Assembly (NCBI GenBank): GCA_050259635.1 | Contig: JBLNBA010000001.1 | Location: 7,329 to 71,328 of the forward strand | Length of the DNA: 64,000 nucleotides | DNA from: Bacillota bacterium | Lineage (GTDB): Bacteria; Patescibacteriota; Patescibacteriia; Patescibacteriales; UBA12465 | Direction: 5' to 3' | The notes under the pieces: model-generated | Seen by the model: only the letters and a program-made list of their open reading frames with translations | Databases searched by the model: none | Told to the model about the DNA's origin: nothing | Program-made: the position numbers and the translations under genes | Shown: piece after piece, positions 1,968-45,185 of the stretch | Layout: each line of letters opens with the position of its first letter | Numbering within the stretch: the first letter of the stretch is position 1

Positions 1968-2083
1968 ACAGGACAAGATAGCGGTTAGTTTTTTTGGAGG
2001 GACTCAGGCGTATTGCCAGGGTCCTTTTTTCAATATCCCGTTTCCAAGCAGGCTTTACTTAAGTGCTTTTTTTTGCTATAATA

Positions 2084-2148: not shown

Positions 2149-3546
2149 ATGAAAAAAACAGGGTCGACCGCTAATAAACGTTTTCTCGCTTATCTGCCAT
2201 TAATGGTGGCTTTTGGCGCCTTGGCCGCTTATCCTAGACCCGCTCTTCAGGCTGCCAACCCCTTCCAGATAGGGGCCACCGTAACGGTAACGGCCCCCAG
2301 CCTCAACGTACGCGACGCCGCCGGGACGACCGCCAAAGTGCTCGGCTCGGTCCCTGCCGGCTCTACCGGGAAGATCATTGGAGGGCCCAACCTGGCGAGC
2401 GGCAGCAAATGGTGGAAAATAGACTACCTTAACGGCCCCGACGGCTGGTCTGCCGAACCATTTTTGCGTGTATCCTCCAGTCTCGCGCCGGCAGTTAAAT
2501 TCAAGGCCGGCGATCGGATAATCTCTACCGATACCATCATCATACGCAACGGCGTCGGCTTATCAGCTAAGATCGTCGGCGTGATAAGCCAAGGATCTAC
2601 GGGCACTATTATCGCCGGACCGAACCGCGCCAATGACAGCAATTGGTGGCTGATAAATAATGATAACGGCGCCGATGGCTGGACCCTCGAGAACCCCCTG
2701 TCTAAAGTTTCTTCCACTCCTACTCCCATCCCCAAGCCTACGCTGAAATGGGGCGCTTATGCCGGCAACAATCCGGGCGATCTTGAATCCTTTGAAAAGC
2801 TAGTCGGCAAGCAAGCGGATATCCAAGCAGTCTTTGTCGGCTGGAACGATCCCTTTCCCTGGGAAATTGCCCGACGCTTAAAAAATTCGGGCAAAACTCT
2901 GCTTATTTTTTGGGAACCATATTCCACTTCTCTTGAATCGATCGACGCCGGCCATTCCGATGGCTACATGGAAGCGTTCGCTACAGAAGCCAAGGCCTAT
3001 GGCGGGCCCATCATGTTAGCCCCTTTGCACGAAATGAACGGGAATTGGGATCCCTGGGGCGGATATGGCTGGGATGATAAGCCCATCAATAGCCCGTCGC
3101 TGATAATCTCCGTATGGCGCCGGATGCACGGCTTCTTTAAGGGAGCAGACAACGTCAAATTCGCCTGGGCGGTGAATAATGATTCCGTCCCGGACATCCC
3201 CGCTAATTCAATTAATACCTATTACCCGGGTGATAATTATGTAGACTACGTCGGCGTCGACGGCTTTAACTTCGGTACTCCTTGGCAAAGCTTTGATGAA
3301 GTATTCGGGAACGCTATTAAATCCGTATCAGTACATAAGAAGCCGATCTATCTATTTTCCATCGGTTCCACGGCTTCCCCAGAAAAGGATAACTGGATTA
3401 AAGAAGGATTGGGAAACCTTATCCAGCACTATCCGGGAGTGGCCGGCTGGGTCTGGTTTAACCAAAATGGGCCCGACCGGAATTGGACGATAAATTCGGA
3501 CCCCGATTCGCTCGCCGCATTCCGCTCCGTCATTCCTTTAAAATAA
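2149..3546 (+). CDS. secreted glycoside hydrolase, GH26-like catalytic domain preceded by two SH3b domains
   Basis: N-terminal signal-like segment. Two repeats of the type SLNVRDAAGTTAKVLG...WWKIDY..DGW (SH3b). C-terminal LAPLHEMNGNWDPWGG resembles the GH26 HE.NG.W..WG motif. Confidence 0.65.
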   Translation: MKKTGSTANKRFLAYLPLMVAFGALAAYPRPALQAANPFQIGATVTVTAPSLNVRDAAGTTAKVLGSVPAGSTGKIIGGPNLASGSKWWKIDYLNGPDGWSAEPFLRVSSSLAPAVKFKAGDRIISTDTIIIRNGVGLSAKIVGVISQGSTGTIIAGPNRANDSNWWLINNDNGADGWTLENPLSKVSSTPTPIPKPTLKWGAYAGNNPGDLESFEKLVGKQADIQAVFVGWNDPFPWEIARRLKNSGKTLLIFWEPYSTSLESIDAGHSDGYMEAFATEAKAYGGPIMLAPLHEMNGNWDPWGGYGWDDKPINSPSLIISVWRRMHGFFKGADNVKFAWAVNNDSVPDIPANSINTYYPGDNYVDYVGVDGFNFGTPWQSFDEVFGNAIKSVSVHKKPIYLFSIGSTASPEKDNWIKEGLGNLIQHYPGVAGWVWFNQNGPDRNWTINSDPDSLAAFRSVIPLK

Positions 3547-3722
3547 AACACCTATGATAAAATCATCACCCCCACCCCAAGCAAACATTACCTGCCTGAC
3601 GGCTAATAGACTAGCCGGAGGGAGCTTTTGCCAAATAACTTACAACTGCTCGGTGATCGATATAAGCATCATGAAAAACCTGCATTCTAATATGCAGGTT
3701 TTTTTGCGCCCATAGTAAATTT

Positions 3723-4751
3723 ATGAAAATCTCGCTGCTCGTACCATGTTTCAATGAAGAGCGCTCTATCGAAGCGACCATCCGTTCCTGCCTCAACCAG
3801 ACACGGAAGTTTGACGAAATCATTTTCATTGATGACAGCTCCACCGACGATACCCCGAATATCCTTAAACGTTATGCGCGAAAGGGAGTGAAAAGCTATA
3901 AAACTCCTCATAATACCGGCAATAAAAGCAGCGCGCAAGAATTCGGCTTAAATTTCCTAACTGGGGACATTATGGTAACGACCGATGCAGATACTTTGCT
4001 TGACCCGCGCTTCGTTGAAGAGATCGAAAAAAGCTTCCGCAACCCGGGGATATTCGCCGTCGCCGGTTACGTTAAAAGCCTTCCCTATAACTGGCTCACG
4101 CTCTGCCGCGCCTTCGATTATGTCATCGGCCAGGATTTCCATAAGCTCGCCCAAGCACACTTGAACTATATCTTTGTCATGCCCGGGGCAGCCAGTGCTT
4201 TTAGAGTGAAAATGTTCCGACGTTATATTACTTTCGACCATGATACGATCACCGAAGATTTGGATTTCACCTATATGCTGCATCGCCGGAATCTGCGTAT
4301 CGAATACAACACCAAGGCGATTACCTACACCCAGGATCCGGCAACGCTTAGCAACTACATCAACCAGATGCGCCGCTGGTATGACGGGGGCTGGCAGAAC
4401 CTCCGGAAGCACTACCGCATCATGAAGAACCCGGTCCGCGCCCTTGAGCTATCTTTGATCTATATCGAAGGCATGGTCTTTTCCGTCCTGATCTTTCTCA
4501 TTCCTCTCCTCAATTTCTGGTTTGCCTTGATGTTTATATTTTCCTCTCTCATCATCACCCTGCTATACGGCATCTGGGCGGCCTGGAGACAACGCCGCCC
4601 CTTGCTTCTACTCGCCCCCTTCCCTTATGTAATCATAGTATTTATAAATTCCGCCCTTTATTTGGAGACATTTACCAAAGAAATATTGCTTCGGAGACGG
4701 AACCTTAAATGGTTCAAGCCCGAGCGGGTAAATATTGAAATTAAACAATGA
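3723..4751 (+). CDS. membrane-embedded family 2 glycosyltransferase, processive synthase type (IcaA/PgaC/NodC-like)
   Basis: LVPCFNEE, DDSSTDDT, TDADT (DxD) and QMRRW (QxxRW) motifs, followed by C-terminal hydrophobic helices. Confidence 0.8.
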   Translation: MKISLLVPCFNEERSIEATIRSCLNQTRKFDEIIFIDDSSTDDTPNILKRYARKGVKSYKTPHNTGNKSSAQEFGLNFLTGDIMVTTDADTLLDPRFVEEIEKSFRNPGIFAVAGYVKSLPYNWLTLCRAFDYVIGQDFHKLAQAHLNYIFVMPGAASAFRVKMFRRYITFDHDTITEDLDFTYMLHRRNLRIEYNTKAITYTQDPATLSNYINQMRRWYDGGWQNLRKHYRIMKNPVRALELSLIYIEGMVFSVLIFLIPLLNFWFALMFIFSSLIITLLYGIWAAWRQRRPLLLLAPFPYVIIVFINSALYLETFTKEILLRRRNLKWFKPERVNIEIKQ

Positions 4752-5361
4752 TATGCCCTTGACGCCTTCCATCGGATTATCCGTCCTTGTCCATCTGATC
4801 GTACTCCTGGTTTACGGGATCAGGAGGGTATTCGGTTCCGCAAAGCGTAATTCACTAAAAAGCATCCGCATCCACCACGCGGTGATAAACAACCGCTTCC
4901 TCGGCATAATTATCCCTATCACCATTTCCGTCGTCATCTTTAGCGGCGCGTTCAAGCTCGTAGAGTTGTCCGTCCAAAATCGCTATTCTTCCATCCATCT
5001 GGTACGCCAATATCTAGACAACCTTCCGCAAGGACCGCAAGCCATAAGCAGCCAAATCGCCTTGCAAAGCCGCTTGGATGAGCAAAGCGTCCCTCCCGTC
5101 GCCGAAGCGGGAAAGGTCGAGGCCGCTTTTGACTGCACACCGTTATTCAATAACTTTGCGTCCGAATACGGCTGGTCTTTGGTCAACTACCTGACAGCCA
5201 AAGGATTGCCGCAAGACCTACCCTTCCGAAAGAACCTGGCGGCCGAAGTAGGAATCCAGGGATATGACGGCAGCAGCGCTAAGAATATTGAGCTCCTCCA
5301 GACTTTATTCATCCGCAACTCGGAGGGAGGGCTGCCAAAAAATGCCATTTGCCGCCTGTAA
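4735..5361 (+). CDS. hypothetical membrane protein, overlaps the GT2 gene
   Basis: Overlaps the GT2 stop by 17 nt. Two hydrophobic segments (SIGLSVLVHLIVLLVYGI; FLGIIIPITISVVIFSGAF). No family recognised. Confidence 0.5.
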   Translation: MKLNNDMPLTPSIGLSVLVHLIVLLVYGIRRVFGSAKRNSLKSIRIHHAVINNRFLGIIIPITISVVIFSGAFKLVELSVQNRYSSIHLVRQYLDNLPQGPQAISSQIALQSRLDEQSVPPVAEAGKVEAAFDCTPLFNNFASEYGWSLVNYLTAKGLPQDLPFRKNLAAEVGIQGYDGSSAKNIELLQTLFIRNSEGGLPKNAICRL

Positions 5362-5447
5362 TGATCGACCGACTAATTAATTAATTACAATACTATGAAA
5401 AAGCGAGAAGACAAACATTTACAAAATTTCTATTTAATAACAACGAT

Positions 5448-8400
5448 ATGAAACAAAAAAAGTTTTTACAACTTGTATCGAAAGCCAGCCTCTTTGCACT
5501 TATGGGGGCGACAATACTAAGTTTCAACGCCGCATTGCCAGCCCAAGCCGCTGGGCCTAATTTAATAACCAACCCTTCCCTCGAGACTGCCGACGGAGCA
5601 AACCCCCAAGGCTGGCTCAATGGTTTTTTCCCGGCCGGCCTGCAAGCAAATTTCACCTACCCGGTTGAAGGTTCCACCGGTACAAGCAGCAAGGCGGCTA
5701 AAGTAGAGATTACCAGTTATCCGGGCGAAGGCGATGCAAAATGGTACTTCCAAGACGTAACGGTCCAACCCGAAACCTACTACGTGATTTCCGATAAATA
5801 TAAGTCCACGATTCCGAATAAAGTAATCGTGCGCTATAACCTTGGCAATAGCGTATATAACAACGTCACCTTAGAACAGCTCCCGGCAGCAGCAGACTGG
5901 ACAAACATGAGCCACGAGTTTTTGACACCGGCCGGAGTAATATCACTCACTATCTTCCATGTGATAGAAGGAGTGGGGACATTGACGGTAGACGACTATA
6001 ATCTAGCCACGAAAGATTCCCCCAATGTCTTCGACAATGGCATGTTTACTTTTACCTTCGATGATGGTTGGCAATCCGTCTATGACAATGCCCTTCCTAT
6101 CCTCGATGCTAAAGGATACAAGAGCACTCAATATATTATTACTGATGTCGTCCAAGATGAAAGGGTGGGTTCCTATATGACTTCGGCTGAAGTACTCGCC
6201 ATGATTAATTCCGGCCATGATATAGCCGACCATACCCGCACCCATACCAGCTTAGCCCTACCCCCCTTAAGCCCGGCAGAACTTGCTAAAGAAGTATCCG
6301 GTTCCCGCCTTGATCTTCTCACCCGCTTGAACGCGAAACCGGTGGACAGTTTAGCTTATACCTATGGGGATTATGATGAGGCCGCCAAAGCCGCCGTTCG
6401 GGATGCCGGTTTCATCGGAGCGCGCACGATCGACGAAGGATATAACGATAAAGCCTCAGACCGCTATGCCTTGAAGGCCATGTCTATCCTCAGGGGCGGA
6501 ATAGACGCGGATAATGGAAACGAAATCGCCACCACCACGATCGAAGAAGTGAGGGCTGCCATAGATAACGCCATTACCAACAAGGCTTGGCTCATATTCA
6601 CCCTTCACCAAATAGACAATATCGATAGCAACGTCTATGGCGCCACCCCCGAATTCCTCCAACAGATGGTGGACTACATCCAGCAAAAGCAAGGCTCCGT
6701 GAAGACCATGTCCGAAGCGCTGCATTTAATGCCTGGAACCCCGGTTAAAGATACTGTTCCGCCTATCCTAGCAACCACTACGGATATTAGCGTCCCAGCC
6801 ACTAGCGGATCGGGTGCAATCGTCTCTTTTTCTTCACCGGCTGTGACCGATAATATTGATACCAATCTTAAATCTTTCTGCTATACGGCTTCCGGCTTGG
6901 CTTCAAGCTCCACTTTCCCTATTGGTAATACAGAAATATCTTGCCGAGCGATGGATTCGAGCGGCAACCTCTCCAGCTTAGGAACTTTTAATGTCATCGT
7001 TATTGATCCGGCTGCGCCTGTCGTCACTTTAAACTCACCGGTAAGCCCCACTAAGCTGAGAGACTTTACCTATAATTTCTCCAGTAGCGACCCCTTAGCA
7101 GTGCTGACTTATAGCCTTGATGGCGCCGCTTACCAAACAGCAACCTCGACAGCCACATCAACGGCAACCTCAACCGTTACTGTCACCGGCCTACTGGAGG
7201 GAAATCATACCTTTAGCGTCCAGGCAACGGACTCCCAGAACCGAGTTGGTATGGCCACCAGCCGTTTCATCGTCGATCTCACGAAACCGGTAATCACCCT
7301 TAATGGCTCCGCCTCATCTACCTTAGCGGTCGGGGCCGGCTTTACCGATCCGGGAGCAAGCGTCTTAGATAACGTCGATGGCGTAATGACCGCCATCGTA
7401 AGCGGTGACACTGTAACCACCAGCACCCCGGCTGGGACGTATAAGATTTACTATGATGCGACCGACAGGGCTGGAAATGCAGCAGATCGCCTGACTCGCA
7501 CAGTTATAGTCGGCGATGGCGGCAGCGGAAATAATAATAACGGCCCCTCAGCCACGGATATCAGCGCCACCGCGATTACCATCCGCTGGAATTCGGCCGC
7601 CTCGTCCACCGGCGCAATTGTTTGGGATAAAGCCTCCCATACAACGGCCTCCAGCACAGCGGCAGGACCGGAAAAATACGGCTATCCCAACCTTACCAGC
7701 GGAGGCAGCAATCCCAGCATTGAACATTCGATAAAGATAGAGAATCTCGACCCTGACACCACTTATTATTTCCGTACGGTTACGATAGCGGGCACCTCTA
7801 CCCCCCTGCTTGGAAACGAGATCAGCGCCAAGACTTTACGCCGGCCTTCAGGCGGCGGCGGTTATATCCCCTCGACTCCGCCAACATATTATGGACAGGC
7901 CAACGGCTACATCGCCTGGAACGGAAATGTCGGGGGCAATGGCAATGGCCAGACGGATTATCTCGCAGAAGCCAGGATCATTTCCTTATATAATGGCGAC
8001 ATTACCCTGACGCCCGCCAACCAAGCTCTATATAACAGCCTGGTCGGTAATAGGGTGGTAACGGAAGGACAGCGTAAAGCTATATCTTATTTCATCCAAA
8101 ACGGCACCGACAGCAGCCGCAAACTCGGCTCCGGTGAGCGAGCCGGAGTGCTCGGTTCCTTCCTGAAAGCATTCGAACGACTCCCGCTCGATGAGCAAGA
8201 TTGGGAAGATGTCTTAAAGGTAGCTTCCGGACGCTGGACTAAAAAGATCAACCAGAAGGCAGAGCAAAACGCCCTTACGATCTTTTCCGTCATCTATAAG
8301 CGTAAGGCGAACCTGAGCGAAGTCCACGACCAGACGGCGGTCAAGCTCATTGCGTATGGCTTACGCCCGGGTAATCGCAATCTTAAAAGTGAGAAAGCTT

Positions 8401-8498
8401 CACTCAAGAGCTTCTTCTCCATCTTTAACCGCCTGCCGAGGCTGGCTGGCGATTGGGACATCGTCCGGGCAATTGCCTATAGCGGCGCGAAGCGCTAA
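5448..8498 (+). CDS. large secreted multidomain polysaccharide deacetylase (CBM4/9-like + CE4 NodB + HYR + Ig-like/DUF5011-like + FN3-like + repeated C-terminal domain)
   Basis: Signal peptide ...LPAQAAGP. CE4 motifs FTFDDGW and DHTRTH. HYR-like DTVPPIL...SCRAMDSSGN. PVITLNG...GTYKIYYDATDRAGN is Ig-like. 1016 aa. Confidence 0.8.
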   Translation: MKQKKFLQLVSKASLFALMGATILSFNAALPAQAAGPNLITNPSLETADGANPQGWLNGFFPAGLQANFTYPVEGSTGTSSKAAKVEITSYPGEGDAKWYFQDVTVQPETYYVISDKYKSTIPNKVIVRYNLGNSVYNNVTLEQLPAAADWTNMSHEFLTPAGVISLTIFHVIEGVGTLTVDDYNLATKDSPNVFDNGMFTFTFDDGWQSVYDNALPILDAKGYKSTQYIITDVVQDERVGSYMTSAEVLAMINSGHDIADHTRTHTSLALPPLSPAELAKEVSGSRLDLLTRLNAKPVDSLAYTYGDYDEAAKAAVRDAGFIGARTIDEGYNDKASDRYALKAMSILRGGIDADNGNEIATTTIEEVRAAIDNAITNKAWLIFTLHQIDNIDSNVYGATPEFLQQMVDYIQQKQGSVKTMSEALHLMPGTPVKDTVPPILATTTDISVPATSGSGAIVSFSSPAVTDNIDTNLKSFCYTASGLASSSTFPIGNTEISCRAMDSSGNLSSLGTFNVIVIDPAAPVVTLNSPVSPTKLRDFTYNFSSSDPLAVLTYSLDGAAYQTATSTATSTATSTVTVTGLLEGNHTFSVQATDSQNRVGMATSRFIVDLTKPVITLNGSASSTLAVGAGFTDPGASVLDNVDGVMTAIVSGDTVTTSTPAGTYKIYYDATDRAGNAADRLTRTVIVGDGGSGNNNNGPSATDISATAITIRWNSAASSTGAIVWDKASHTTASSTAAGPEKYGYPNLTSGGSNPSIEHSIKIENLDPDTTYYFRTVTIAGTSTPLLGNEISAKTLRRPSGGGGYIPSTPPTYYGQANGYIAWNGNVGGNGNGQTDYLAEARIISLYNGDITLTPANQALYNSLVGNRVVTEGQRKAISYFIQNGTDSSRKLGSGERAGVLGSFLKAFERLPLDEQDWEDVLKVASGRWTKKINQKAEQNALTIFSVIYKRKANLSEVHDQTAVKLIAYGLRPGNRNLKSEKASLKSFFSIFNRLPRLAGDWDIVRAIAYSGAKR

Positions 8499-8557
8499 TT
8501 CCCGACAACGAAACCAGGCCTCTATATGAGGCCTTTTCGTTTATCCAGCGTAAAAGG

Positions 8558-11019: not shown

Positions 11020-11524
11020 CTTTAGCAAAAAATATTGGAATTTTTGGAACATAGCTGGGTACACTGCCTTAGCTATGTTTTTTATTGCCGACCGCCTTCT
11101 CAAGACTGCAGCCGTCAAGCAAGGATATGGCGGTTATATGGAACTCGTTGGAGGATTACTGAGGTTCCGTCTCAGCCCCAATAGCGGGCTCGCTTTTTCC
11201 ATAAACAGCGGCCTTCCTGGCCTAACCTGGCTTATTTCCGGGGTCATTTTAGCCCTTTTAATTTATCTTTCTTATTTAATAATAAATAAAAAGAATCAGA
11301 GACACCTCCTTCTACCCTTGACATTTATTATAATAGGTGCTATAAGTAATGTACTAGATCGCATTCTTTTCGGAGCTGTTATCGACTACCTAGATGTCGC
11401 CAACCTCACGGTCTTGAACCTATCTGATGTCTTAATAACCATCGGATTAATCGTCTTGTTCATTCAACAAACAACGTCCAATCATGCAGACACTCATAGC
11501 GAAAAAACTAACGCTAAAGGGTAA
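11012..11524 (+). CDS. lspA: lipoprotein signal peptidase (signal peptidase II)
   Basis: Four hydrophobic segments and the NVLDRILFGAVIDYLDV motif typical of LspA. Confidence 0.8.
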   Translation: MTDFSKKYWNFWNIAGYTALAMFFIADRLLKTAAVKQGYGGYMELVGGLLRFRLSPNSGLAFSINSGLPGLTWLISGVILALLIYLSYLIINKKNQRHLLLPLTFIIIGAISNVLDRILFGAVIDYLDVANLTVLNLSDVLITIGLIVLFIQQTTSNHADTHSEKTNAKG

Positions 11525-11801
11525 AAAGGAAACCTTAGAACTCGCAGGTAAAGTCGCTGATCATTATTTCAAAAAATTCTCGACTAAGTTATTCGATGAA
11601 GAAGAAACTGAAAATGATCAGTCAGAGTTCATGAATTTATTAAAAAGCGGGAAAGACATAGTCCTCTTAGATCCTATCTTAAGCGATTCTGAAAGAACAG
11701 AGATTAATTCTCTGACAGATAAAGCATTCATAGGCCTCCTCAGAGAAGTTAGCCTAAACTTCCTCAGGATGGATAAGAGCCTCTCTTCTCATCTTCGCTG
11801 A
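11484..11801 (+). CDS. hypothetical protein (105 aa)
   Basis: ORF only. Overlaps the lspA end by 41 nt, so the true start may be later. Confidence 0.3.
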   Translation: MQTLIAKKLTLKGKKETLELAGKVADHYFKKFSTKLFDEEETENDQSEFMNLLKSGKDIVLLDPILSDSERTEINSLTDKAFIGLLREVSLNFLRMDKSLSSHLR

Positions 11802-11802
11802 C

Positions 11803-11841
11803 AAAAAAAGTCCCCTTCATTGATTTGAAGGGGACATTTTT
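11803..11841. terminator. bidirectional intrinsic terminator
   Basis: gtccccttca / tgaaggggac 10-bp stem flanked by an A-run and a T-run, between convergent genes. Confidence 0.65.
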
Positions 11842-11851
11842 ATTTTCTCGC

Positions 11852-12631
11852 TTAGGCCGCTTTTCTTAATTCTGCCTCCGCCTCCTTTACCGAGGTCTCA
11901 AGTGCAGTCATATCTGAGTAAAGCTGCATCGCCCAAGAAGCGATGTATTTTCTTTCCGCGTCCGGCTCCCGTGGTATGGCTTTGAAGTCGATGAAAGCCC
12001 CGGCCGAATAAGGGAATTTATAATATTCATGTTCCGCCAAGGCGGCCGCCAGATCAGATTGGGACAAGCCTTCCCGATCCTTGAATTGTGATTCCTCGGA
12101 CAGGCGTCTTTCCTCCGGATATTCGGCATTAAAGGTAATATTTACCATCCGGGCCGCAATCTTTATGTCGCCAATTAGCTTGTTATGATACCTTCGCCTG
12201 GATTCTTCCGATTCTATCTGGCTATCTAAAAACTTCTGTTGGTCTACTTCTTCCGAGCGACGCATCGTCATCATGTAATTTACGGAACCGATATAATTGC
12301 GGATATCTTCATGAATATTCTTGAGCATGCTAAGGATCGCCTTTTTCCTCTCCTCAAAAATCTTCAACTCCCTCATATCACCGGCCGCTTCCGACTTGAG
12401 AGATGAATCTTTTATGATCTCTACCGTTTTGATGAAATTTTTTCCGGCCGAACTGATGATTTCGTGCTTTTCAATTTTAGCTTCACCTACCAAAGCTTCC
12501 TGATCATCCGTTTTCTCTTGATCGTCTTTTAACATCTCATCGATTTCTGCTTTCTCGGGCCTGCCCTCGTTATAGAGATCAGGATTTTTAAACATGTCCC
12601 TGAATTGTTTCAAAGGCGATTCAAATTTCAT
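11852..12631 (-). CDS. hypothetical protein (259 aa), co-transcribed with tsaE
   Basis: 4-nt overlap with the tsaE stop. Charged, helical-looking sequence with no recognised family. Confidence 0.55.
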   Translation of the reverse strand: MKFESPLKQFRDMFKNPDLYNEGRPEKAEIDEMLKDDQEKTDDQEALVGEAKIEKHEIISSAGKNFIKTVEIIKDSSLKSEAAGDMRELKIFEERKKAILSMLKNIHEDIRNYIGSVNYMMTMRRSEEVDQQKFLDSQIESEESRRRYHNKLIGDIKIAARMVNITFNAEYPEERRLSEESQFKDREGLSQSDLAAALAEHEYYKFPYSAGAFIDFKAIPREPDAERKYIASWAMQLYSDMTALETSVKEAEAELRKAA

Positions 12632-13077
12632 ATTTTTGAAATATTAATAATCCTTTCCTCGACCGACACTGCCTCGATCCTGACCTTAATCAGATCGCCG
12701 CTACCGATAATTTCTTCAGCTTTTTCTGCCCACTCGATAGCACAGACAACATCCTTGGCACTGATATAATCGAGAGCGCCGATTTCCCTTAATTCGGAGG
12801 TTGAAGTCAGACGGTATGTATCAATATGGCAAAACCGCCGGATGGCTCCGGTTTTAATCTCATAAATATTCATGATCGAGAAGGTAGGGCTGTTTACGAT
12901 CTGTTTTACCCCTAAGCCTTCTGCTAAGCCCTGCACAAAAGCTGTTTTACCCGCACCTAAATCTCCGTAAAGTGCGATTACTTCGCCGCCCTGGAGAGAA
13001 GGCGCCAGCTCACGGGCAATAGCCTTCGTTTCTTCGGTTGATCGGCTTTTGTAACTCTTATAATCCATATTATCCAT
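12628..13077 (-). CDS. tsaE: tRNA threonylcarbamoyladenosine (t6A) biosynthesis ATPase TsaE
   Basis: [19 protein letters not shown] (P-loop), then [12 protein letters not shown] and HIDTYRL, all typical of TsaE/YjeE. Confidence 0.85.
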
Positions 13078-22295: not shown

Positions 22296-22321
22296 AGACC
22301 TCCTAACGGAGGTCTTTTTTA
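22296..22321. terminator. bidirectional intrinsic terminator
   Basis: agacctcc-taac-ggaggtct hairpin flanked by an A-run and a T-run, between convergent genes. Confidence 0.65.
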
Positions 22322-23647
22322 TTCCTTCATCTTCCAAACGCTAACCCAGGCATCCTCGAATACAGGTTCATATTTATCATCGATAAGCCGCTCTACCGGA
22401 TTATCCGAGTTATATCGGAAACGATGCAGCGAAGAAGAAAAAGAACGGACAACACATATGGGCATTTTCTCCGCGATCGCCGCCGCCGCGTCTGCGAACT
22501 GAGCCCGAGTCTGGTGTCCAGTTATGAGGATATCGAAGGAAGAAGCGCTTAGTTTTTGAGTTTCATAATAAGCATTAGGAAAAAATGGACCGGCATGCAA
22601 ATATGCCCCCGGACAATTATGCTTTACGTACTCAATGAAACCGGGTTCCATCCCTGGTTCGAGGGCAGCTGAGGCATATCGGCTCACCGGATACAAGAAT
22701 AAGCAGGCAAAAATGGCAAGATATATCCAGGTCCACATAGTCTTTCGATCCGTCATGCCGATTACGACCATCGGCAATACAGGTAAAAGCGCAATTGTAA
22801 GGTGATATGAATCAGGAAGAGGCAGGCAAGACAAGAGGAGAAGCGCAGCGATATAATATAATAGCCATTCTTCTTTACTAGAGCGTCGGCGGTCCCATAC
22901 CAAACAAGCCAAACCGGCTACCGCCCACCAAAATAATGCCAAAGAAAAGCGATTTGCTTCAATATAATTGAATATGGGAAAAATGATTAACTGATCAAAA
23001 ACTAGTTTTGCCGGAAAAATCAAGAATAGAAGTGCTAGCGGAATAAGAGCGATAGATAAGAAGACTATTACCTGACTAAACTTCCTTTTCCAACCATTCT
23101 CTACCCATAATAACCATACCGCTTCTGCCCCCAGGAAGGCCAAGCCTTTCTGTTGCAATAATATGATTGAAAGCCCGGTTACGAAGGCGGCTACTATAAA
23201 TGAGGACATCTTTCTTCTCTCCCGATATGATAGTAAAAAATTTACTGCCCAGAGAATGACAACGAGATTAAAGAAATTATGATTAATAATCCAGTGCCAA
23301 GAGGTCAAAATCAAGAAAAGGATGGGGGAAAAATATGAAGCCTGCCGGGCTCCAAACCTTTTAGTTAACCGGAATACGGCCACCGCCCCCATGATTACAA
23401 ATATAATCGCTAAAGCCTTGGCTGACCAAAAAGCCGCTCCAGTAAGGCTGAAAGCGGCTGCAACTAAATACGACGATAGCGGCGGAATAAAGGTAAAATA
23501 ATCCGTAAACGGTTCTCGTCCGTTAAAGATATTCCAAGCACCATTAAGAATCACGCCTTCATCGGCATTAATCAAATGGTCGCAGTGAATTAACACCGCC
23601 AAAGCACTAATAAACAGCCAATACGCTAATTTACTCAGTCTTTTCAT
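22319..23647 (-). CDS. polytopic membrane glycosyltransferase, GT-C fold (GT39/PMT_2/ArnT-like)
   Basis: First-loop motif ADEGVILNGAWNIFNGREPFTDYFTFIPPL resembles PMT_2/GT39-like enzymes. More than 10 TM segments. Start moved to MKRLSK (ATG 23645-23647). Confidence 0.55.
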   Translation of the reverse strand: MKRLSKLAYWLFISALAVLIHCDHLINADEGVILNGAWNIFNGREPFTDYFTFIPPLSSYLVAAAFSLTGAAFWSAKALAIIFVIMGAVAVFRLTKRFGARQASYFSPILFLILTSWHWIINHNFFNLVVILWAVNFLLSYRERRKMSSFIVAAFVTGLSIILLQQKGLAFLGAEAVWLLWVENGWKRKFSQVIVFLSIALIPLALLFLIFPAKLVFDQLIIFPIFNYIEANRFSLALFWWAVAGLACLVWDRRRSSKEEWLLYYIAALLLLSCLPLPDSYHLTIALLPVLPMVVIGMTDRKTMWTWIYLAIFACLFLYPVSRYASAALEPGMEPGFIEYVKHNCPGAYLHAGPFFPNAYYETQKLSASSFDILITGHQTRAQFADAAAAIAEKMPICVVRSFSSSLHRFRYNSDNPVERLIDDKYEPVFEDAWVSVWKMKE

Positions 23648-25199
23648 AAATAGATGCCAGGCCGTCAAAATAGACCCGGGACCAAAGAGGAGAGCCGTCA
23701 AAATATTCCCTTAAATTATCAGTAGGTGATGGTTTGCTATCTTTAATATTGAAAAAAATTCTTTCCCATTTCTTATACTGATAAGTCCGATCACTTGAAT
23801 ATATGATAGCCGTATCGATGCCATGCTTTTCTATGGCCGCCCCTATATCTTCAAAGCCATATCTCAAAGCTCGATATTCTTCTAAAATCGTTCGGTTCCC
23901 ATATCGCTCCTGAGGCATCCGTCCATCAATGAAATAGTCAAGCTCGGGCGCTGAATAAAGGAGAAACCCTCCCCAATTGAACTCGTTGAATATCCGTCTC
24001 GATTTTACCTGGCTTAAAGATTCCAAATACTCCACAGCTGCGCAAGGGTATTTTTGTCCACAATAGGCCAGAATCGGATGCAGACCGTAAGGTATCTTCA
24101 CGAGAAGGATAATAGACAGGCCCGCTAAGGATATTGCCGCCAATACTCGCAGCCTGGTAACCATCTGGCCACCTAATTTCGGTAAATCGCTGAAGATATC
24201 TTCCAAAAATAACGTACAGAGGGGTAAGGTAATCAAGGCGAACAAAGGGAAATGTCGACGAGAGCGCCAGGCAAGGATATAAAAAATGATGAATACTCCA
24301 TATTCCCAAAGAGTCCCCCTTTTTACTTCCCGCCAGCGATAAATATGCCAAGTTGCCAGGGCTGAAACCAAAGCTAAATAGGCTAATTGAGGATAATATA
24401 AAGGAAGTGAATATTGGCCAAGCCACTCCTGGATATACCCCATATAGGACGTATTGGTATAACCGGCCAATAAGCCATACAACCTGAATCCATACGGGTT
24501 TATTAACGTCGCCGCCAAAGACATGACCCAGGAAGCAGTAATAAACCAGCGATCACGGTTGGTAAATGATATTATCGGAAGTCCAACAGCTTGGCTAATC
24601 CGCCGCACTAAAGGCACAAGCCAAAGATAGACAGTGTATGCCCCTAGTAAGGCTAGCCCCAAAAGGAAGCTACCATGGAAATTAGACCAGAGAAGAAAAA
24701 GGGTGGGCATTATATAAAGGAAGTGCTTGGGTCTGACCCAAGTGATGACATACATAATGACTACCGAAAAAAGCAAGCCAAATTCCTGGACCCTTAAACC
24801 CAGATGTGGCCGACTCGCCCAAACAGCCAAAACCCCAAGAAGGAAGGCGTATCCCAAGCTATTTTTTTTAGCCCCATGCCATACAGCTAAAGCTACGGCC
24901 GTGAGGGCCACTAGAGCAAAGAGCAGATGCAGGACGCCAAACCCGGCTAATTTAGTCACCCCAGCCATACCTGCATTTAGAAGCCACTCATGATCGATCC
25001 AATCTCTTTGGAGCGTAAAATTGTAGAAGTTTTCCCGAGGAGCCTGCCCGCTGTCCAAGATATCGTTACCAACACGAAGATGCCATCCTAGGTCAGAATC
25101 AGAATATGAATAAGAATTAAATATAAGAATAGATAAGAAAAAAATAAGGCCGCTGCCGATCAATATTCCTCTTGACAAGTTCTTTTTTTTCTTATCCAT
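23631..25199 (-). CDS. large polytopic membrane protein, possible GT-C-type glycosyltransferase
   Basis: About 12 hydrophobic segments, an early loop SDSDLGWHLRVGN...DHEWL, and a soluble C-terminal domain. Family not firmly recognised. Confidence 0.45.
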   Translation of the reverse strand: MDKKKKNLSRGILIGSGLIFFLSILIFNSYSYSDSDLGWHLRVGNDILDSGQAPRENFYNFTLQRDWIDHEWLLNAGMAGVTKLAGFGVLHLLFALVALTAVALAVWHGAKKNSLGYAFLLGVLAVWASRPHLGLRVQEFGLLFSVVIMYVITWVRPKHFLYIMPTLFLLWSNFHGSFLLGLALLGAYTVYLWLVPLVRRISQAVGLPIISFTNRDRWFITASWVMSLAATLINPYGFRLYGLLAGYTNTSYMGYIQEWLGQYSLPLYYPQLAYLALVSALATWHIYRWREVKRGTLWEYGVFIIFYILAWRSRRHFPLFALITLPLCTLFLEDIFSDLPKLGGQMVTRLRVLAAISLAGLSIILLVKIPYGLHPILAYCGQKYPCAAVEYLESLSQVKSRRIFNEFNWGGFLLYSAPELDYFIDGRMPQERYGNRTILEEYRALRYGFEDIGAAIEKHGIDTAIIYSSDRTYQYKKWERIFFNIKDSKPSPTDNLREYFDGSPLWSRVYFDGLASIYEKTE

Positions 25200-41854: not shown

Positions 41855-42598
41855 TTAGTTAATAATCTGGCCTTCTATAGGCCCTTTTTTATTACTGCTT
41901 CTAGTAACCCGTTGCTGCAGAATGGTTACAAGAGTAATAACCAACCAATATAGGGTCAGGCCTCCGGGTAAAGTAATACCGATAAATATGGTAATAGCCG
42001 GCATAAAATATAACATTTGCTTATTCATGATCGCTGCCATATTTTCATCCTTCGCCCCTTCGCCTGCAATCTTGGTGTCCACCCGCTTCGCCATCATCAT
42101 TTTCGCCTGCCAAAATTGAGCTGCTCCTGCCAATATTGCTAAAGCTATATTTGGCTTAGACAGATCGAGAAACCCCAAAAAAACCGGATTGATCGTTTCA
42201 GGACGAGGCACGAAGGAATAAACTAAATCCAGATGATTCTGTAGGCCGTCACGAAACACTCTATATACCGCTATAAAAAAAGGTAGTTGGAGTAGTAAGG
42301 GCAGGCAGGAAGAGAATGGATTGACCTTATTCTGCTTATAAAGGTCCATTAATTCCCGTCCCATCTCTTGCTGATTATCCTTGTATTTGACCTTGAGCTC
42401 ATCGATTTTCGGCTGCAAAAGCTGTAAGGCCTTCTGTGAGCGAATAGATTTCCGTGACAGAGGCCAGAGAATCAGCTTAATAATTACTGTTAAGAGAATA
42501 ATGGCCAAACCAAGGTCATGTAAAGTTACGGAATTGTATAAGAATACCAACAGATTCAAGATCGGTTGATAAAAAACTACTTGAAATAGATGGATCAT
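41855..42598 (-). CDS. yidC: membrane protein insertase YidC (short, Oxa1-like form)
   Basis: LWPLSRKSIRSQKALQLLQPKIDELKVKYKDNQQEM..ELMDLYKQNKVNPFSSCLPLLLQLPFF is the conserved YidC core. Lies in rnpA-yidD-yidC synteny. Confidence 0.85.
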   Translation of the reverse strand: MIHLFQVVFYQPILNLLVFLYNSVTLHDLGLAIILLTVIIKLILWPLSRKSIRSQKALQLLQPKIDELKVKYKDNQQEMGRELMDLYKQNKVNPFSSCLPLLLQLPFFIAVYRVFRDGLQNHLDLVYSFVPRPETINPVFLGFLDLSKPNIALAILAGAAQFWQAKMMMAKRVDTKIAGEGAKDENMAAIMNKQMLYFMPAITIFIGITLPGGLTLYWLVITLVTILQQRVTRSSNKKGPIEGQIIN

Positions 42599-42602
42599 AA
42601 AT

Positions 42603-42857
42603 TTATTTTACAGGATCGTAACCTCCTGGATTGAATGGGTTACAGCGCAAAACGCGCCACATTGTCATTAATAGACCTTTTATCGGACCATATTTGCTTA
42701 TCGCCTGCACGCCGTACTCGGAACATGTCGGCGTAAACCGGCAATGTCCATAGGGATACAAAAAACGGAAAGGTCCATGGTCAAAGGACAAGGTTTTCTG
42801 ATATAACCGAATTAAAGCAACCAAGAAAGCCCCGATCGCACGGGACATCAGAGACAT
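42603..42857 (-). CDS. yidD: membrane protein insertion efficiency factor YidD
   Basis: [45 protein letters not shown]. Confidence 0.9.
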
Positions 42858-42863
42858 AATATA

Positions 42864-43199
42864 TTATTTATAAAGACGGTTCAGCATTGCCAACAATTCA
42901 TCTTCTGTTTCCTGAAAAGACGCTTCTTTAAGCGTGGGCAGAGCAATTATAACACAATCGGCTGGAAATGGTAATTTGGTATAATTTTTCTCAATTATCC
43001 CATATATCCGTCTTTTTAGGCGGTGTCTCCCGACTGCACTCTTATCAACTTTCAACCCCAAAATAACGCCAAATCGGCTATAATCCAAGTCATTTTTCTT
43101 TAATCTTAAGCCTAAAAACCGCCCGTATTGGCTACGGCCGGCTTTGAAGGTCTTATCGAAATCGCGGTTTAAATGGAGTTTATGTTTCTTACTTAACAT
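42864..43199 (-). CDS. rnpA: ribonuclease P protein component
   Basis: FGVILGLKVDKSAVGRHRLKRRI (RNR-like motif), positioned between rpmH and yidD. Confidence 0.85.
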   Translation of the reverse strand: MLSKKHKLHLNRDFDKTFKAGRSQYGRFLGLRLKKNDLDYSRFGVILGLKVDKSAVGRHRLKRRIYGIIEKNYTKLPFPADCVIIALPTLKEASFQETEDELLAMLNRLYK

Positions 43200-43211
43200 G
43201 GCAAAAAGCCA

Positions 43212-43349
43212 TTATTTAGATAAAACTTCACGTCCTTTATCACGGCGACGCTTCAAAACATCCCTTCCATCCTTTGTGCTCATCCGCTTTAAGAAACCAT
43301 GTTTCTTGGAAGCGCGCTTCTTATTAGGCTGATACGTTCTTTTTGGCAT
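43212..43349 (-). CDS. rpmH: 50S ribosomal protein L34
   Basis: Below the ORF-track cut-off. Hand translation [45 protein letters not shown] (45 aa) matches the L34 consensus. Confidence 0.85.
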
Positions 43350-43512
43350 AAGTTATGTGATTTCTGAATGATTATTTCAAACATAACACTATAAATACAA
43401 AAGGTCAATAATCAACCGAAAATAGGTTATGCACTTATTATAAACACCTTTTAAACATTGATTCTCCTTGTGACCGCGAGATATATACATTATAATATAT
43501 AGGAATCTACTC

Positions 43513-44916
43513 GTGCTTATGAACAACGACCAAATCTGGCAAGCGGCCCTTGGAGAATTAGAAATAAATCTCTCAAGGGTTAATTTCGTTACCTGGTTCA
43601 AGGACACTTATCTGTCCTCTTTTGAAAATGGCCGAGCGATTATTTGCGTACCCAATGCTTTTGTTAAGAAGTGGCTTGAAGAAAAATACCATAAGAACAT
43701 TGTTTCTTCGCTTGAAAATATTTCGAAGCAAAAACTACAGGAAATAATTTACAAAATTGAACTTCGCCACGCCGGCCCGCATGAACTCGCTCCTTCGGTC
43801 ATGAGCATTAAACAGCCAGAAACAGTAATTACAGACGCTAGACAAGAAGCCTCCCGTTCATCTTCGTCCGGACAGCCGGCTAATCGCTTTGGTCTTAATC
43901 CGAAATATGTTTTCGAAAATTTCATAGTAGGCCGAGGCAACGAACTTGCTCACGCTGCTTGCCGTGCGGTTGTAAATAATCTTGGGAAAGCCTATAATCC
44001 TCTTTTCATCTATGGCGGCGTTGGTTTAGGAAAAACGCATTTACTTCAAGCTATCGGTAATGAAGTCGCGAAACACACTGATAAAATTCTTTATGTTACC
44101 AGTGAAAAATTTACCAATAACTACATCCAGGCCGTACAAACAGGAAAGGCTAAAGACTTTAAAAATATCTATCGCAACGTCGACCTCTTATTAGTAGACG
44201 ATGTCCAGTTTATGGGCGGGAAAGACGGGACTCAAGAAGAATTCTTCCACACTTTCAACGAACTACAGCAGGGCGATAAGCAAATCGTAATGACCTCCGA
44301 TCGTCCGCCGAAGTCTATCCCTGCCATAGAAAAACGTCTTATCTCCCGCTTCGAATCAGGCATGGTGGCCGATGTGGGTAAGCCCGATATGGAAACTAAG
44401 ATCGCGATTCTCGAGAAGAAGTCCTTAGAGAAAGGCTTTCCTTTAGATAAGGATGTTCTAATATACATCGCAAATAATGTACAGAATAACATCAGAGAAC
44501 TTGAAGGGGCTCTTAATAAGGTAATCGTAATCCACCAGCTAAACAACTCCGTCCCGACATTAAAAAGTGTTAGGAACGCCTTAAGCGACTATGTTTCAAG
44601 CCTCCAGGCTAAGTCGCTTACTGCCAAAGAAATCATCGAGGCTGTCTCTCGATTTTACGAAATCAGCCACAAAGATATAGTCGGTACCAGCCGACGGAAA
44701 GAGCTTGTGGGTCCAAGACAGATTGCCATTTATCTTATTAGGGAAGAATTAAATTCATCTTATCCTAGCATCGGCCAGGAAATTGGAGGGCGCGATCACA
44801 CGACTGCTATGCATGCTTATAATAAGATCTTGGGTGAATTGAAAGAAAATGATAATGAACGTTTAAAGCAAGAGATAGAATCAATCAAACAGTTATACGC
44901 CAACCCACTCTATTGA
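43513..44916 (+). CDS. dnaA: chromosomal replication initiator protein DnaA
   Basis: WQAALGELE..., Walker A GGVGLGKTHLLQAIGN, LLVDDVQF, sensor regions, and C-terminal DNA-binding SYPSIGQEIGGRDHTTAMHAYNKI. Start is GTG 43513 or ATG 43519. Confidence 0.92.
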   Translation: MLMNNDQIWQAALGELEINLSRVNFVTWFKDTYLSSFENGRAIICVPNAFVKKWLEEKYHKNIVSSLENISKQKLQEIIYKIELRHAGPHELAPSVMSIKQPETVITDARQEASRSSSSGQPANRFGLNPKYVFENFIVGRGNELAHAACRAVVNNLGKAYNPLFIYGGVGLGKTHLLQAIGNEVAKHTDKILYVTSEKFTNNYIQAVQTGKAKDFKNIYRNVDLLLVDDVQFMGGKDGTQEEFFHTFNELQQGDKQIVMTSDRPPKSIPAIEKRLISRFESGMVADVGKPDMETKIAILEKKSLEKGFPLDKDVLIYIANNVQNNIRELEGALNKVIVIHQLNNSVPTLKSVRNALSDYVSSLQAKSLTAKEIIEAVSRFYEISHKDIVGTSRRKELVGPRQIAIYLIREELNSSYPSIGQEIGGRDHTTAMHAYNKILGELKENDNERLKQEIESIKQLYANPLY

Positions 44917-45185
44917 TGTGTATATCCTGTGGTAAAACCCATTCCCTCCTGTTAATCACCTTGTGGGTAAGCGCGTGCCAATCAGTTGATAAACCAAAGA
45001 TCCTCAAAGAGGTGGATAATAATCCACTTCCAATTCCCGGTAAAGCACCGTTAATCAATAAGGGTAATCACAGCTATTTTTATTTAATATCAGATAAACA
45101 TTTAATGATTTTGAACTTGTCCACTCCGCTTATTATTATTGTTTATTAAATATTATAAATATATATATATTAATACTAATAATAT
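44917..45185. other. candidate oriC: DnaA-box-like sites plus an AT-rich unwinding element in the dnaA-dnaN spacer
   Basis: TGTGGGTAA (44962-44970) and GGTGGATAA (45011-45019) abut TAATCCACT (45020-45028) as an inverted pair. Also TGTGGTAAA (44928-44936) and TTGTCCACT (45117-45125). Positions 45131-45185 are almost pure A/T. Confidence 0.6.

Follow-up and report, generated by a model that had tools for sequence, protein, structure and literature searches.

Four genes lie one after another on the forward strand of a 64,000-nucleotide (nt) stretch of bacterial DNA (NCBI GenBank assembly GCA_050259635.1, contig JBLNBA010000001.1, positions 7,329 to 71,328), which we refer to throughout as the window. 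A preliminary description had read them as an icaADB-like exopolysaccharide (EPS) module, and open reading frame (ORF) calls on the window confirm all four, on one strand and at the coordinates it gave (Table 1). The first, g1, encodes a secreted protein in which wall-binding SH3b domains precede a domain related to glycoside hydrolase family 26 (GH26). Next come g2, a membrane-bound family 2 glycosyltransferase (GT2), and g3, a small membrane protein. The last and largest, g4, joins a putative carbohydrate-binding module (CBM) to a deacetylase of carbohydrate esterase family 4 (CE4). We think the locus is probably one copy of a minimal, synthase-dependent surface polysaccharide pathway that runs through the Candidate Phyla Radiation (CPR, or Patescibacteria), its likely product a beta-linked poly-N-acetylglucosamine partly de-N-acetylated outside the cell.

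The argument draws on the window and on its relatives. Domains were scored against Pfam thresholds and against the equivalog cut-offs of curated NCBIfam families, and AlphaFold2 (AF2) models were matched to folds in the PDB with Foldseek. A scan of contigs for relatives of the GT2, with one genome per species, returned 132, from which 80 loci (given L-numbers) were retained; their six-frame ORFs were searched with the window proteins. Because many of the 80 are cut by contig ends, we also give a stricter count on the 40 with at least 6 kb upstream and at least 8 kb downstream of the GT2, called well flanked below.

Table 1. Features of the locus, in window positions, and coordinates of three variant loci, in positions of those loci
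Feature	Positions	Strand	Description
Promoter-like site	2054-2082	+	TTTACT-17-TATAAT, extended TG, upstream of g1; consensus match only
g1	2149-3546	+	465 amino acids (aa); secreted, wall-binding, GH26-derived; NCBI 'SH3 domain-containing protein' MGE5425479.1
g1 domains (residues)			Signal peptide ~1-36; SH3b 51-104 and ~129-189; GH26-like (beta/alpha)8 196-465
E295 codon	3031-3033	+	GH26 acid/base Glu, equivalent to CtLic26A E109
S404 codon	3358-3360	+	Nucleophile position, equivalent to CtLic26A E222 (reads Gln in PDB 2cip), strand 7
Terminator-like hairpin	3674-3705	+	Between g1 and g2; A-tract, 8-bp stem ACCTGCAT/ATGCAGGT, T7
g2	3723-4751	+	342 aa; cytoplasmic GT-A domain, interface helix 209-233 with QMRRW
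g2 membrane helices (residues)			237-263, 265-290, 299-322, all C-terminal (hydropathy and AF2)
g3	4753-5361	+	202 aa; proposed synthase partner, two membrane helices; NCBI product MGE5425481.1
g4	5448-8498	+	1016 aa; secreted multidomain deacetylase
g4 domains (residues)			Signal peptide 1-34; CBM4/9-type beta-sandwich ~35-190; CE4 ~196-425; HYR 434-518; Ig-like 616-688; FN3-like 701-782; repeat-containing C-terminal region 800-1016
Terminator-like hairpin	8516-8534	+	After g4; probable end of g2-g3-g4 unit
L044, DUF2334 type	11070-11912		Variant locus
L047, DUF2334 type	~11096-12842		Variant locus
L082, DUF2334 type	6871-7806		Variant locus

The synthase

The membrane GT2 with DxD and QMRRW motifs that had been described is there to be read in g2 (D88-A-D90 and Q215-MRR-W219), along with D38, the UDP-binding Asp, and T177-E-D179, and 70 aligned database homologues of 60-87% identity keep these positions with few or no exceptions. 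Three Pfam families score above threshold (Glycos_transf_2, Glyco_tranf_2_3 and Glyco_trans_2_3). The AF2 model (pLDDT 91.5, pTM 0.88) finds its best PDB folds among the hyaluronan synthases, at a query-normalised TM-score of 0.71-0.79, and next in Chs1 and BcsA, with Foldseek E-values from 7e-16 to 1e-12. Motifs and fold alike are those of processive membrane synthases, and we are confident that g2 is a processive polymer synthase.

It is a small one. With class I hyaluronan synthases (the matches at 0.71-0.79 are the Chlorella virus and Xenopus enzymes), Chs1 and BcsA it shares a GT-A domain, a QxxRW interface helix and membrane helices, but it is much smaller, with three C-terminal helices only, and a separate protein presumably completes its channel. 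The N-terminal membrane helices of PgaC and IcaA are absent by hydropathy and in the AF2 model. Alignment with Escherichia coli PgaC (28% identity, E 1e-24) starts at PgaC residue 76, past its two N-terminal helices; the match to the PgaC_IcaA family, TIGR03937, begins at model position 46 and reaches 117.5 bits, short of the equivalog cut-off of 422.3. What looks to be new in g2, going by the model, is this minimal membrane part of three C-terminal helices and none N-terminal. The protein ends in a basic tail (residues 323-342) with the motif (R/K)-N-L-x-W-F-K-P-E-R, which is invariant or nearly so family-wide and modelled with low confidence. The tail may be a regulatory or interaction element.

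The proposed membrane partner

The preliminary description gave g3 as a 208-aa protein overlapping the GT2 stop by 17 nt. That overlap is probably not real, because an ATG at 4753 lies one base past the GT2 stop, NCBI annotates the 202-aa product, and most orthologues begin M-P-x-T-P-like a few nt past the stop of their GT2; the TTG at 4735 comes from the ORF rule alone. To judge from these starts, ATG 4753 is most likely where g3 begins. Its helices fall at residues 11-29 and 50-68 in the numbering of the 208-aa ORF. A small protein of this kind (77-240 aa, with one or two N-terminal helices) is the next gene after the GT2 in about 60 of the 78 loci with downstream sequence, and it is found even in loci where sequence search detects no similarity to g3. 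Helix 1 of the family carries the motif (T/S)P-x-x-G-L-S-x-x-x-H; a basic loop leads to helix 2, often followed by (D/E)-x-H-S-S. A subset that includes g3 adds a Cys-flanked extracytoplasmic C-terminal module, weakly DUF3597-like, with DUF3597 matches in 8 of 51 partner sequences and g3 itself below threshold.

The partner had been likened to IcaD and PgaD. A small two-helix protein does follow the GT2; the kinship does not hold. BLASTP of g3 against E. coli PgaD gives E 15, which is no similarity; PgaD/IcaD Pfam matches number none in the 51 partner sequences, and g3 has no NCBIfam match. We considered whether the partner could be PgaD, or the N-terminal helices of PgaC in detached form, and both were rejected for lack of similarity in BLASTP and in profile comparison. 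A search of solved structures with g3 gave chance-level matches only.

What ties the partner to the rest is a set of gene fusions. In eight loci the partner hairpin is the N-terminus of a giant CBM/CE4 protein, and L061 joins it to a CBM-CE4 protein of 416 aa, which makes nine loci with fusions in total. Since its fusion partners are extracellular, the hairpin should run N-out, loop-in, C-out. The topology of PgaD is the opposite. The fusions also argue that the partner belongs to the machinery and is tied to the extracellular enzyme. We infer that membrane helices which other synthases have within their own chain would here come in trans, from the hairpin, and that the hairpin would also couple synthase to deacetylase.

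The deacetylase

g4 is built much as first described, with Pfam matches to Polysacc_deac_1 (PF01522; 67.7 bits against a threshold of 23.1), HYR, Bact_surface_Ig-like and Pur_ac_phosph_N, the last an FN3-like fold. Its CE4 site is intact on alignment. The motifs are F-D205-D206-G (204-207), H262-TRT-H266, YTYG at 304-307, R326 and L-H387; FDDG is kept in 51 of 56 homologues, and H262, H266, R326, W381 and H387 are invariant in 57 CE4 sequences. An AF2 model of residues 31-430 (pLDDT 95.4) shows a beta-sandwich followed by the CE4 barrel, the latter matching PplD, the N-terminal domain of PgaB and the acetyl-xylan esterases 2c71 and 7ax7. The sandwich resembles CBM16, CBM4, CBM22 and CBM61 at target-normalised TM-scores of about 0.6-0.7. 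PF02018 (CBM_4_9) is recorded in many homologues though not in g4 itself, and Pfam searches with the isolated N-terminal and C-terminal regions of g4 returned nothing even at E up to 10.

Against curated deacetylase families g4 scores low: 31.5 bits on IcaB (TIGR03933, cut-off 248) and 17.3 bits on PgaB (TIGR03938, cut-off 322), where CE4 motif 1 alone aligns. Its best curated match is Caulobacter HfsH, at 73.5 bits with a cut-off of 400. HfsH belongs to the holdfast, in which deacetylation makes the polymer adhesive and the pathway is Wzx/Wzy-dependent, not synthase-dependent.

Relatives of g4 reach about 2,500 aa, with many CBM copies. An insertion interrupts the CE4 domain in 30 of 56 homologues: a CBM-like domain of some 150 aa comes between FDDG and HxxxH, and these motifs are then 163-221 aa apart, as opposed to about 60 otherwise (for example L009 5339-7453 and L025 11626-14385). 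For g4 31-430 (window 5538-6737) the PDB fold search ranked first the Haloferax tailed virus 1 turret protein (8qpg_TA), with E 5e-18 over 421 aligned columns; an archaeal virus may use the same two-domain arrangement of CBM and CE4. The C-terminal 216 residues have no family match, and a solved-structure search with them gave chance-level matches only; within residues 800-1016 (window 7845-8495) two repeats of about 32 aa can be made out by eye, with the pattern (F/L)-x-x-F-x-R-L-P-x(4-5)-D-W-x-x-V-x-x-(I/V)-A-x-x-G. This region is common to just 1 of the 80 loci and may be a surface-retention module.

A GH26 lineage with serine in place of its nucleophile

The signal peptide, two SH3b domains and GH26-like domain previously noted in g1 all hold up, with SH3_3 found in two stretches (51.3 bits) and Glyco_hydro_26 at 42.6 bits over a cut-off of 20.2. 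Residues 199-462 match the lichenase CtLic26A of Clostridium thermocellum (PDB 2bv9, 2cip) at E 2e-48 over 264 residues, and the two share fold, family and the acid/base motif HE(x)NGxW, which in g1 reads H-E295-MNGNW. E295 is invariant in 56 of 56 locus homologues and 120 of 120 database homologues. The nucleophile is another matter. Ser stands in its place in 55 of the 56 locus homologues and in 119 of the 120 best database homologues. An exhaustive search of 1.84 billion sequences yielded GH26-like representatives at 50% identity, of which we aligned the best 150: Ser occupies the position in 105 and Glu in 35, and the Glu-type relatives turn up only at lower scores.

Other positions move with it. 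Residue 373 (Y185 in CtLic26A) is Phe in 104 of the 105 Ser-type representatives and Tyr in 29 of the 35 Glu-type; His precedes the acid/base in 32 of 105 as against 31 of 35. Glu itself is retained as acid/base in 103 of the 105. We looked for a relocated carboxylate or other nucleophile, and no further alignment column divides the 105 from the 35. Three differences from Lic26A (E222 to Ser, Y185 to Phe and H170 to Tyr) are found in g1 and fixed across its clade, and the domain is fused to SH3b or PG_binding_1 modules where Lic26A sits in a cellulosomal context. Among the 120 database homologues SH3_3 occurs in 3 and PG_binding_1 in 11. In one representative, P0362 (859 aa), the GH26-like query domain finds two separate matching stretches. 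Our searches of the open-access literature and bioRxiv, a coverage that leaves subscription journals outside, found no account of a nucleophile-less, Ser-type GH26 clade.

The dedicated hydrolase of the preliminary description therefore stands as a GH26 homologue with its acid/base Glu and falls as an enzyme with its nucleophile: the change from Glu to Ser makes classical retaining GH26 hydrolysis by g1 unlikely. Is g1 then simply dead, a catalytically inactive pseudoenzyme that serves as a wall-anchored lectin or scaffold and holds polymer on the cell? GH18 chi-lectins are a precedent for inactive glycosidases turned lectins. The nucleophile and its Tyr partner are both gone, conservation of the His ahead of the acid/base is relaxed, and no relocated carboxylate marks the Ser-type clade. 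We take this to be a serious possibility, though a minority one. Against it stand the near-universal acid/base Glu, a Ser that is fixed without drift, and the many further residues of the active-site region that are invariant among g1 homologues; in L047, moreover, the equivalent slot holds a GH18 family protein. From the alignments we judge that selection has remodelled the catalytic centre through the Ser/Phe change, and that this is not decay. Such a centre would fit catalysis assisted by a 2-acetamido group on the substrate; a single-acid reaction of the transglycosylase type, or a lectin role, fits less well. The mechanistic analogy is with GH18 and GH20 enzymes (chitinases, dispersin B), which also have an acid/base without an enzyme nucleophile and have no sequence or clan kinship to GH26.

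A module conserved across Patescibacteria

The 80 GT2 loci span many CPR candidate phyla at 48-87% GT2 identity: Falkow-, Nomura-, Adler-, Vogel-, Kaiser-, Magasanik- and Woesebacteria among them, and also Shapiro-, Dojka-, Peregrini-, Portnoy-, Staskawicz-, Taylor- and Lloydbacteria. The nearest is L001, from Candidatus Falkowbacteria HGW-2, with a GT2 87% identical; it is colinear with the window, two upstream glyoxalase-type genes included. Of the 80 loci, 65 match the g4 N-terminal domain, 55 match CE4 and 51 match the GH26-like domain. In the well-flanked set a CBM/CE4 protein is present in 37 of 40 and a GH26-like protein in 33, and the 33 loci that have both bear out, for related genomes, the co-occurrence that the preliminary description had set as a check. 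None of the three outcomes named there as refuting it (a non-processive GT2, missing CE4 residues, genes that do not co-occur) came about. In 31 of the 40 the GT2 and its partner are followed immediately by the CBM/CE4 gene, encoded on the same strand. Looked up in reverse, from CE4 or GH26-like homologues, the GT2 cluster was reached in three of five cases, and in a fourth it lay on a different contig of the same metagenome-assembled genome.

All-against-all comparison of the neighbourhoods showed no recurring acetyltransferase, flippase, Wzx/Wzy or priming transferase, and as extra cluster members the clustering gave antisense shadow ORFs and a sortase-like gene only. Since just these families recur, with no lipid-carrier or priming genes, we read the cluster as a four-family, synthase-dependent module; since it recurs in dozens of genomes it is not a matter of chance. 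That the four genes form a functional module we regard as very likely. The sortase-like gene, judged by eye, is about 220 aa long and lies upstream of the GT2 in 12 loci (L046 5157-5798, for example); it is the sole other real family found in more than 10 loci.

Some loci vary the theme. In L044, L047 and L082 a membrane-anchored protein with DUF2334, of the deacetylase superfamily, follows the GT2 where CE4 would stand. L047 has a GH18 family protein in place of the GH26-like one, and in L084 (9903-10877) a GH18 gene, its DxxDxDxE motif intact in the sequence, adjoins the CE4 homologue. Certain GH26-like proteins share the CBM type of the CE4 proteins (L064 8449-9873, L065 7720-9840).

These patterns bear on whether the enzymes serve the synthase at all. 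g1 and g4 might instead be directed at glycans that the cell did not make, such as host peptidoglycan, chitin or EPS from the environment, to attack them or to harvest them in an episymbiotic or scavenging way of life, with the GT2 making something unrelated. The peptidoglycan-binding modules on g1 homologues would suit that, as would the fact that lytic transglycosylases, whose substrate is peptidoglycan, typically work with a single carboxylate; giant multi-CBM proteins resemble adhesins. In a preprint on Nealsonbacteria, CE4 genes come up solely as possible scavengers of EPS from outside the cell (10.1101/2022.04.20.488981). Yet in most well-flanked loci GT2, partner and CBM/CE4 are adjacent on one strand, nine loci fuse partner to CBM/CE4, and the triad of synthase, deacetylase and glycosidase recurs with non-orthologous enzymes, all of which makes a foreign target improbable. 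We found no account of the cluster in the open-access literature or on bioRxiv (subscription journals again lying outside that coverage), and it is both real and conserved, an apparently undescribed variant of the synthase-dependent kind.

The proposed pathway and its polymer

The pathway we propose would run as follows. The GT2, its motifs and fold plain, would polymerise a UDP-sugar, probably UDP-GlcNAc (GlcNAc being N-acetylglucosamine), on the cytoplasmic face and thread the chain through the membrane. g3, probably translationally coupled to it, would complete or stabilise the channel, a role suggested because the GT2 has only three membrane helices, and would link the synthase, perhaps in a physical complex, to the machinery outside. 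There g4 would bind the emerging chain through its CBM4/9-type module and deacetylate it at the CE4 metal site, giving a cationic adhesive polymer, while the HYR, Ig and FN3 repeats might hold g4 at the cell surface or project it outward. g1, tethered to peptidoglycan by its SH3b domains, would most likely cleave or remodel the same polymer, with the 2-acetamido group of the substrate as nucleophile.

A GlcNAc chain is favoured because the curated families rank PgaC_IcaA (117.5 bits) above NodC (56.8) and CelA (24.7) for g2, because the cluster has a deacetylase and no acetyltransferase to go with it, because the glycosidase has no nucleophile, and because the variant loci swap in DUF2334 and GH18. 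A neutral beta-glycan, whether cellulose-like, mixed-linkage glucan-like or mannan-like, has its own attractions, with CE4 then an O-acetyl esterase or active on another substrate. The nearest relative of g1 is a lichenase, and GH26 is a family of mannanases, xylanases and lichenases; acetyl-xylan esterases are among the fold matches of the CE4 domain and BcsA among those of the GT2; and CBM16 and CBM4, the modules closest to the CBM of g4, are binders of glucans and mannans. This alternative too we consider unlikely. An O-acetyltransferase occurs in none of the neighbourhoods compared, the GT2 scores run the other way, GH18 and DUF2334 stand in the variant loci, and a retaining glucanase requires the very nucleophile that the g1 clade has lost. 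Our preference, held with somewhat better than even confidence and read from homology and synteny, is for a GlcNAc-based polymer deacetylated by g4.

Several observations weigh against the scheme as a whole. Among solved structures g1 is closest to a beta-1,3-1,4-glucanase, which is no enzyme of GlcNAc polymers. The acetamido-polarising carboxylate that GH18 and GH20 enzymes have, an Asp, is without an identified counterpart in g1, and no conserved one was found in the Ser-type proteins, in which the residue before the acid/base may be His, Ser, Asp, Glu or others. The CE4 family includes O-acetyl esterases, 2c71 and 7ax7 among them. Seven of the 40 well-flanked loci have no GH26-like gene in range. 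The hints about linkage conflict, the PgaC-like motifs pointing to beta-1,6 and GH18 to beta-1,4. Finally, a terminator-like hairpin parts g1 from g2-g4, and a consensus scan recognised no promoter for g2.

That the polymer is specifically beta-1,6-linked poly-N-acetylglucosamine (PNAG) we consider less likely than not, and that the locus is a bona fide member of icaADBC/pgaABCD making it we consider very improbable. PgaC_IcaA is, to be sure, the best curated match of the GT2, and the ITEDxD and RWxxGG motifs of g2 align with PgaC. The likeness to icaADBC goes further: single-membrane organisms in both cases (CPR cells have one membrane), a QxxRW GT2, a two-helix protein and an extracellular CE4 in that order, mirroring icaA-icaD-icaB, and no lipid-carrier genes. 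Every equivalog score, however, falls far under its cut-off. The GT2 lacks N-terminal helices; the partner, probably N-out/C-out, is unrelated to PgaD or IcaD; the deacetylase carries a CBM and adhesin-like repeats; IcaC is missing and a GH26-derived protein is added. With pgaABCD the locus shares the related GT2 catalytic domain, a synthase with a two-helix partner, a CE4 enzyme and a pathway-linked glycoside hydrolase, PgaB bearing the RefSeq name of N-deacetylase and beta-1,6 glycoside hydrolase. It differs in that the PgaD and PgaB families go unmatched (only CE4 motif 1 is common to g4 and PgaB), no cyclic di-GMP element was seen, and the hydrolase-like function is on a separate wall-tethered protein of GH26 type. 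No counterpart of IcaC or of the PgaA porin appears among the window ORFs and the compared neighbourhoods. What survives of the icaADB-like module first described is thus its functional logic and gene order, and what does not is orthology. The families compared suggest that the module is very likely a functional analogue of icaADB/pgaBCD and, by descent, a separate lineage.

Transcription signals

The preliminary description treated the four genes as one system. Co-occurrence in related genomes speaks for that, and the hairpin that sets g1 apart from g2-g4 qualifies it. The hairpin ends 17 nt ahead of the GT2 ATG, within a g1-g2 spacer (3547-3722) that folds better than shuffled controls (z-score -4.8). 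It is kept in the corresponding spacer of L001 (8336-8545), where the stem still pairs despite changes in both arms; no comparably strong hairpin lies near the GT2 start in the other loci scanned. A riboswitch or leader upstream of the GT2 was considered and rejected: Rfam searches of the GT2 leader found nothing at gathering thresholds or at permissive E-values, and the hairpin is common only to the window and L001. Being confined to the closest relative, it is read as the terminator of g1, not as a family-wide regulator. Given this hairpin and the one after g4, g1 may be its own transcription unit and g2-g3-g4 another, and with a T-tract so close to the GT2 ATG and no promoter recognised, g2 may be expressed by read-through or attenuation.

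Genomic setting

The window is chromosomal: dnaA sits where the cumulative GC skew is at its minimum, and a class A penicillin-binding protein is encoded as well. The minimum falls at about 42-44 kb and dnaA at 43513-44916, so that window 42000-45000 is probably the chromosomal replication origin. NCBI labels the source of the g1-g3 proteins (MGE5425479-81) 'Bacillota bacterium'. The label looks wrong, since the close homologues all come from Patescibacteria, as does the colinear L001, and Falkowbacteria are the nearest of them. Elsewhere the window encodes an Elp3-like protein with radical SAM, Radical_SAM_C and GNAT domains (54867-56453) and, on the reverse strand at 22319-25199, a PMT_2-type membrane glycosyltransferase beside a 522-aa protein without family match. 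The PMT_2-type gene is a further candidate for envelope glycosylation and shows no linkage to the module in other genomes.

Significance

Taken together, the pieces allow a bolder reading, which we offer as a conjecture less likely to be right than wrong: an undescribed, CPR-wide envelope or adhesion polysaccharide system with three new components. The first would be a three-helix synthase whose channel is closed in trans by a new two-helix family, sometimes fused to giant CBM-CE4 adhesins. The second would be the first GH26 lineage to leave double displacement (Glu to Ser, Tyr to Phe) for substrate-assisted cutting or transglycosylation of a GlcNAc polymer, and the third a cationic, deacetylated glue by which episymbionts attach to host cells.

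CPR bacteria account for much of bacterial diversity and spend their lives attached to other cells, but to our knowledge almost nothing is known of their surface chemistry. A GT2 conserved at 48-87% identity over 80 loci, with three recurring partner families, suggests a core surface function, and the locus offers a definite, clonable lead to a possible attachment or envelope polymer. It raises two questions in particular: how a three-helix synthase would translocate its polymer with the help of a separate hairpin protein, and what a GH26 barrel does once its nucleophile has become a Ser that is fixed in more than 100 sequence clusters. The answers would bear on the adhesion of episymbionts to their hosts, on what a minimal processive synthase looks like and on the evolution of glycosidase mechanisms.

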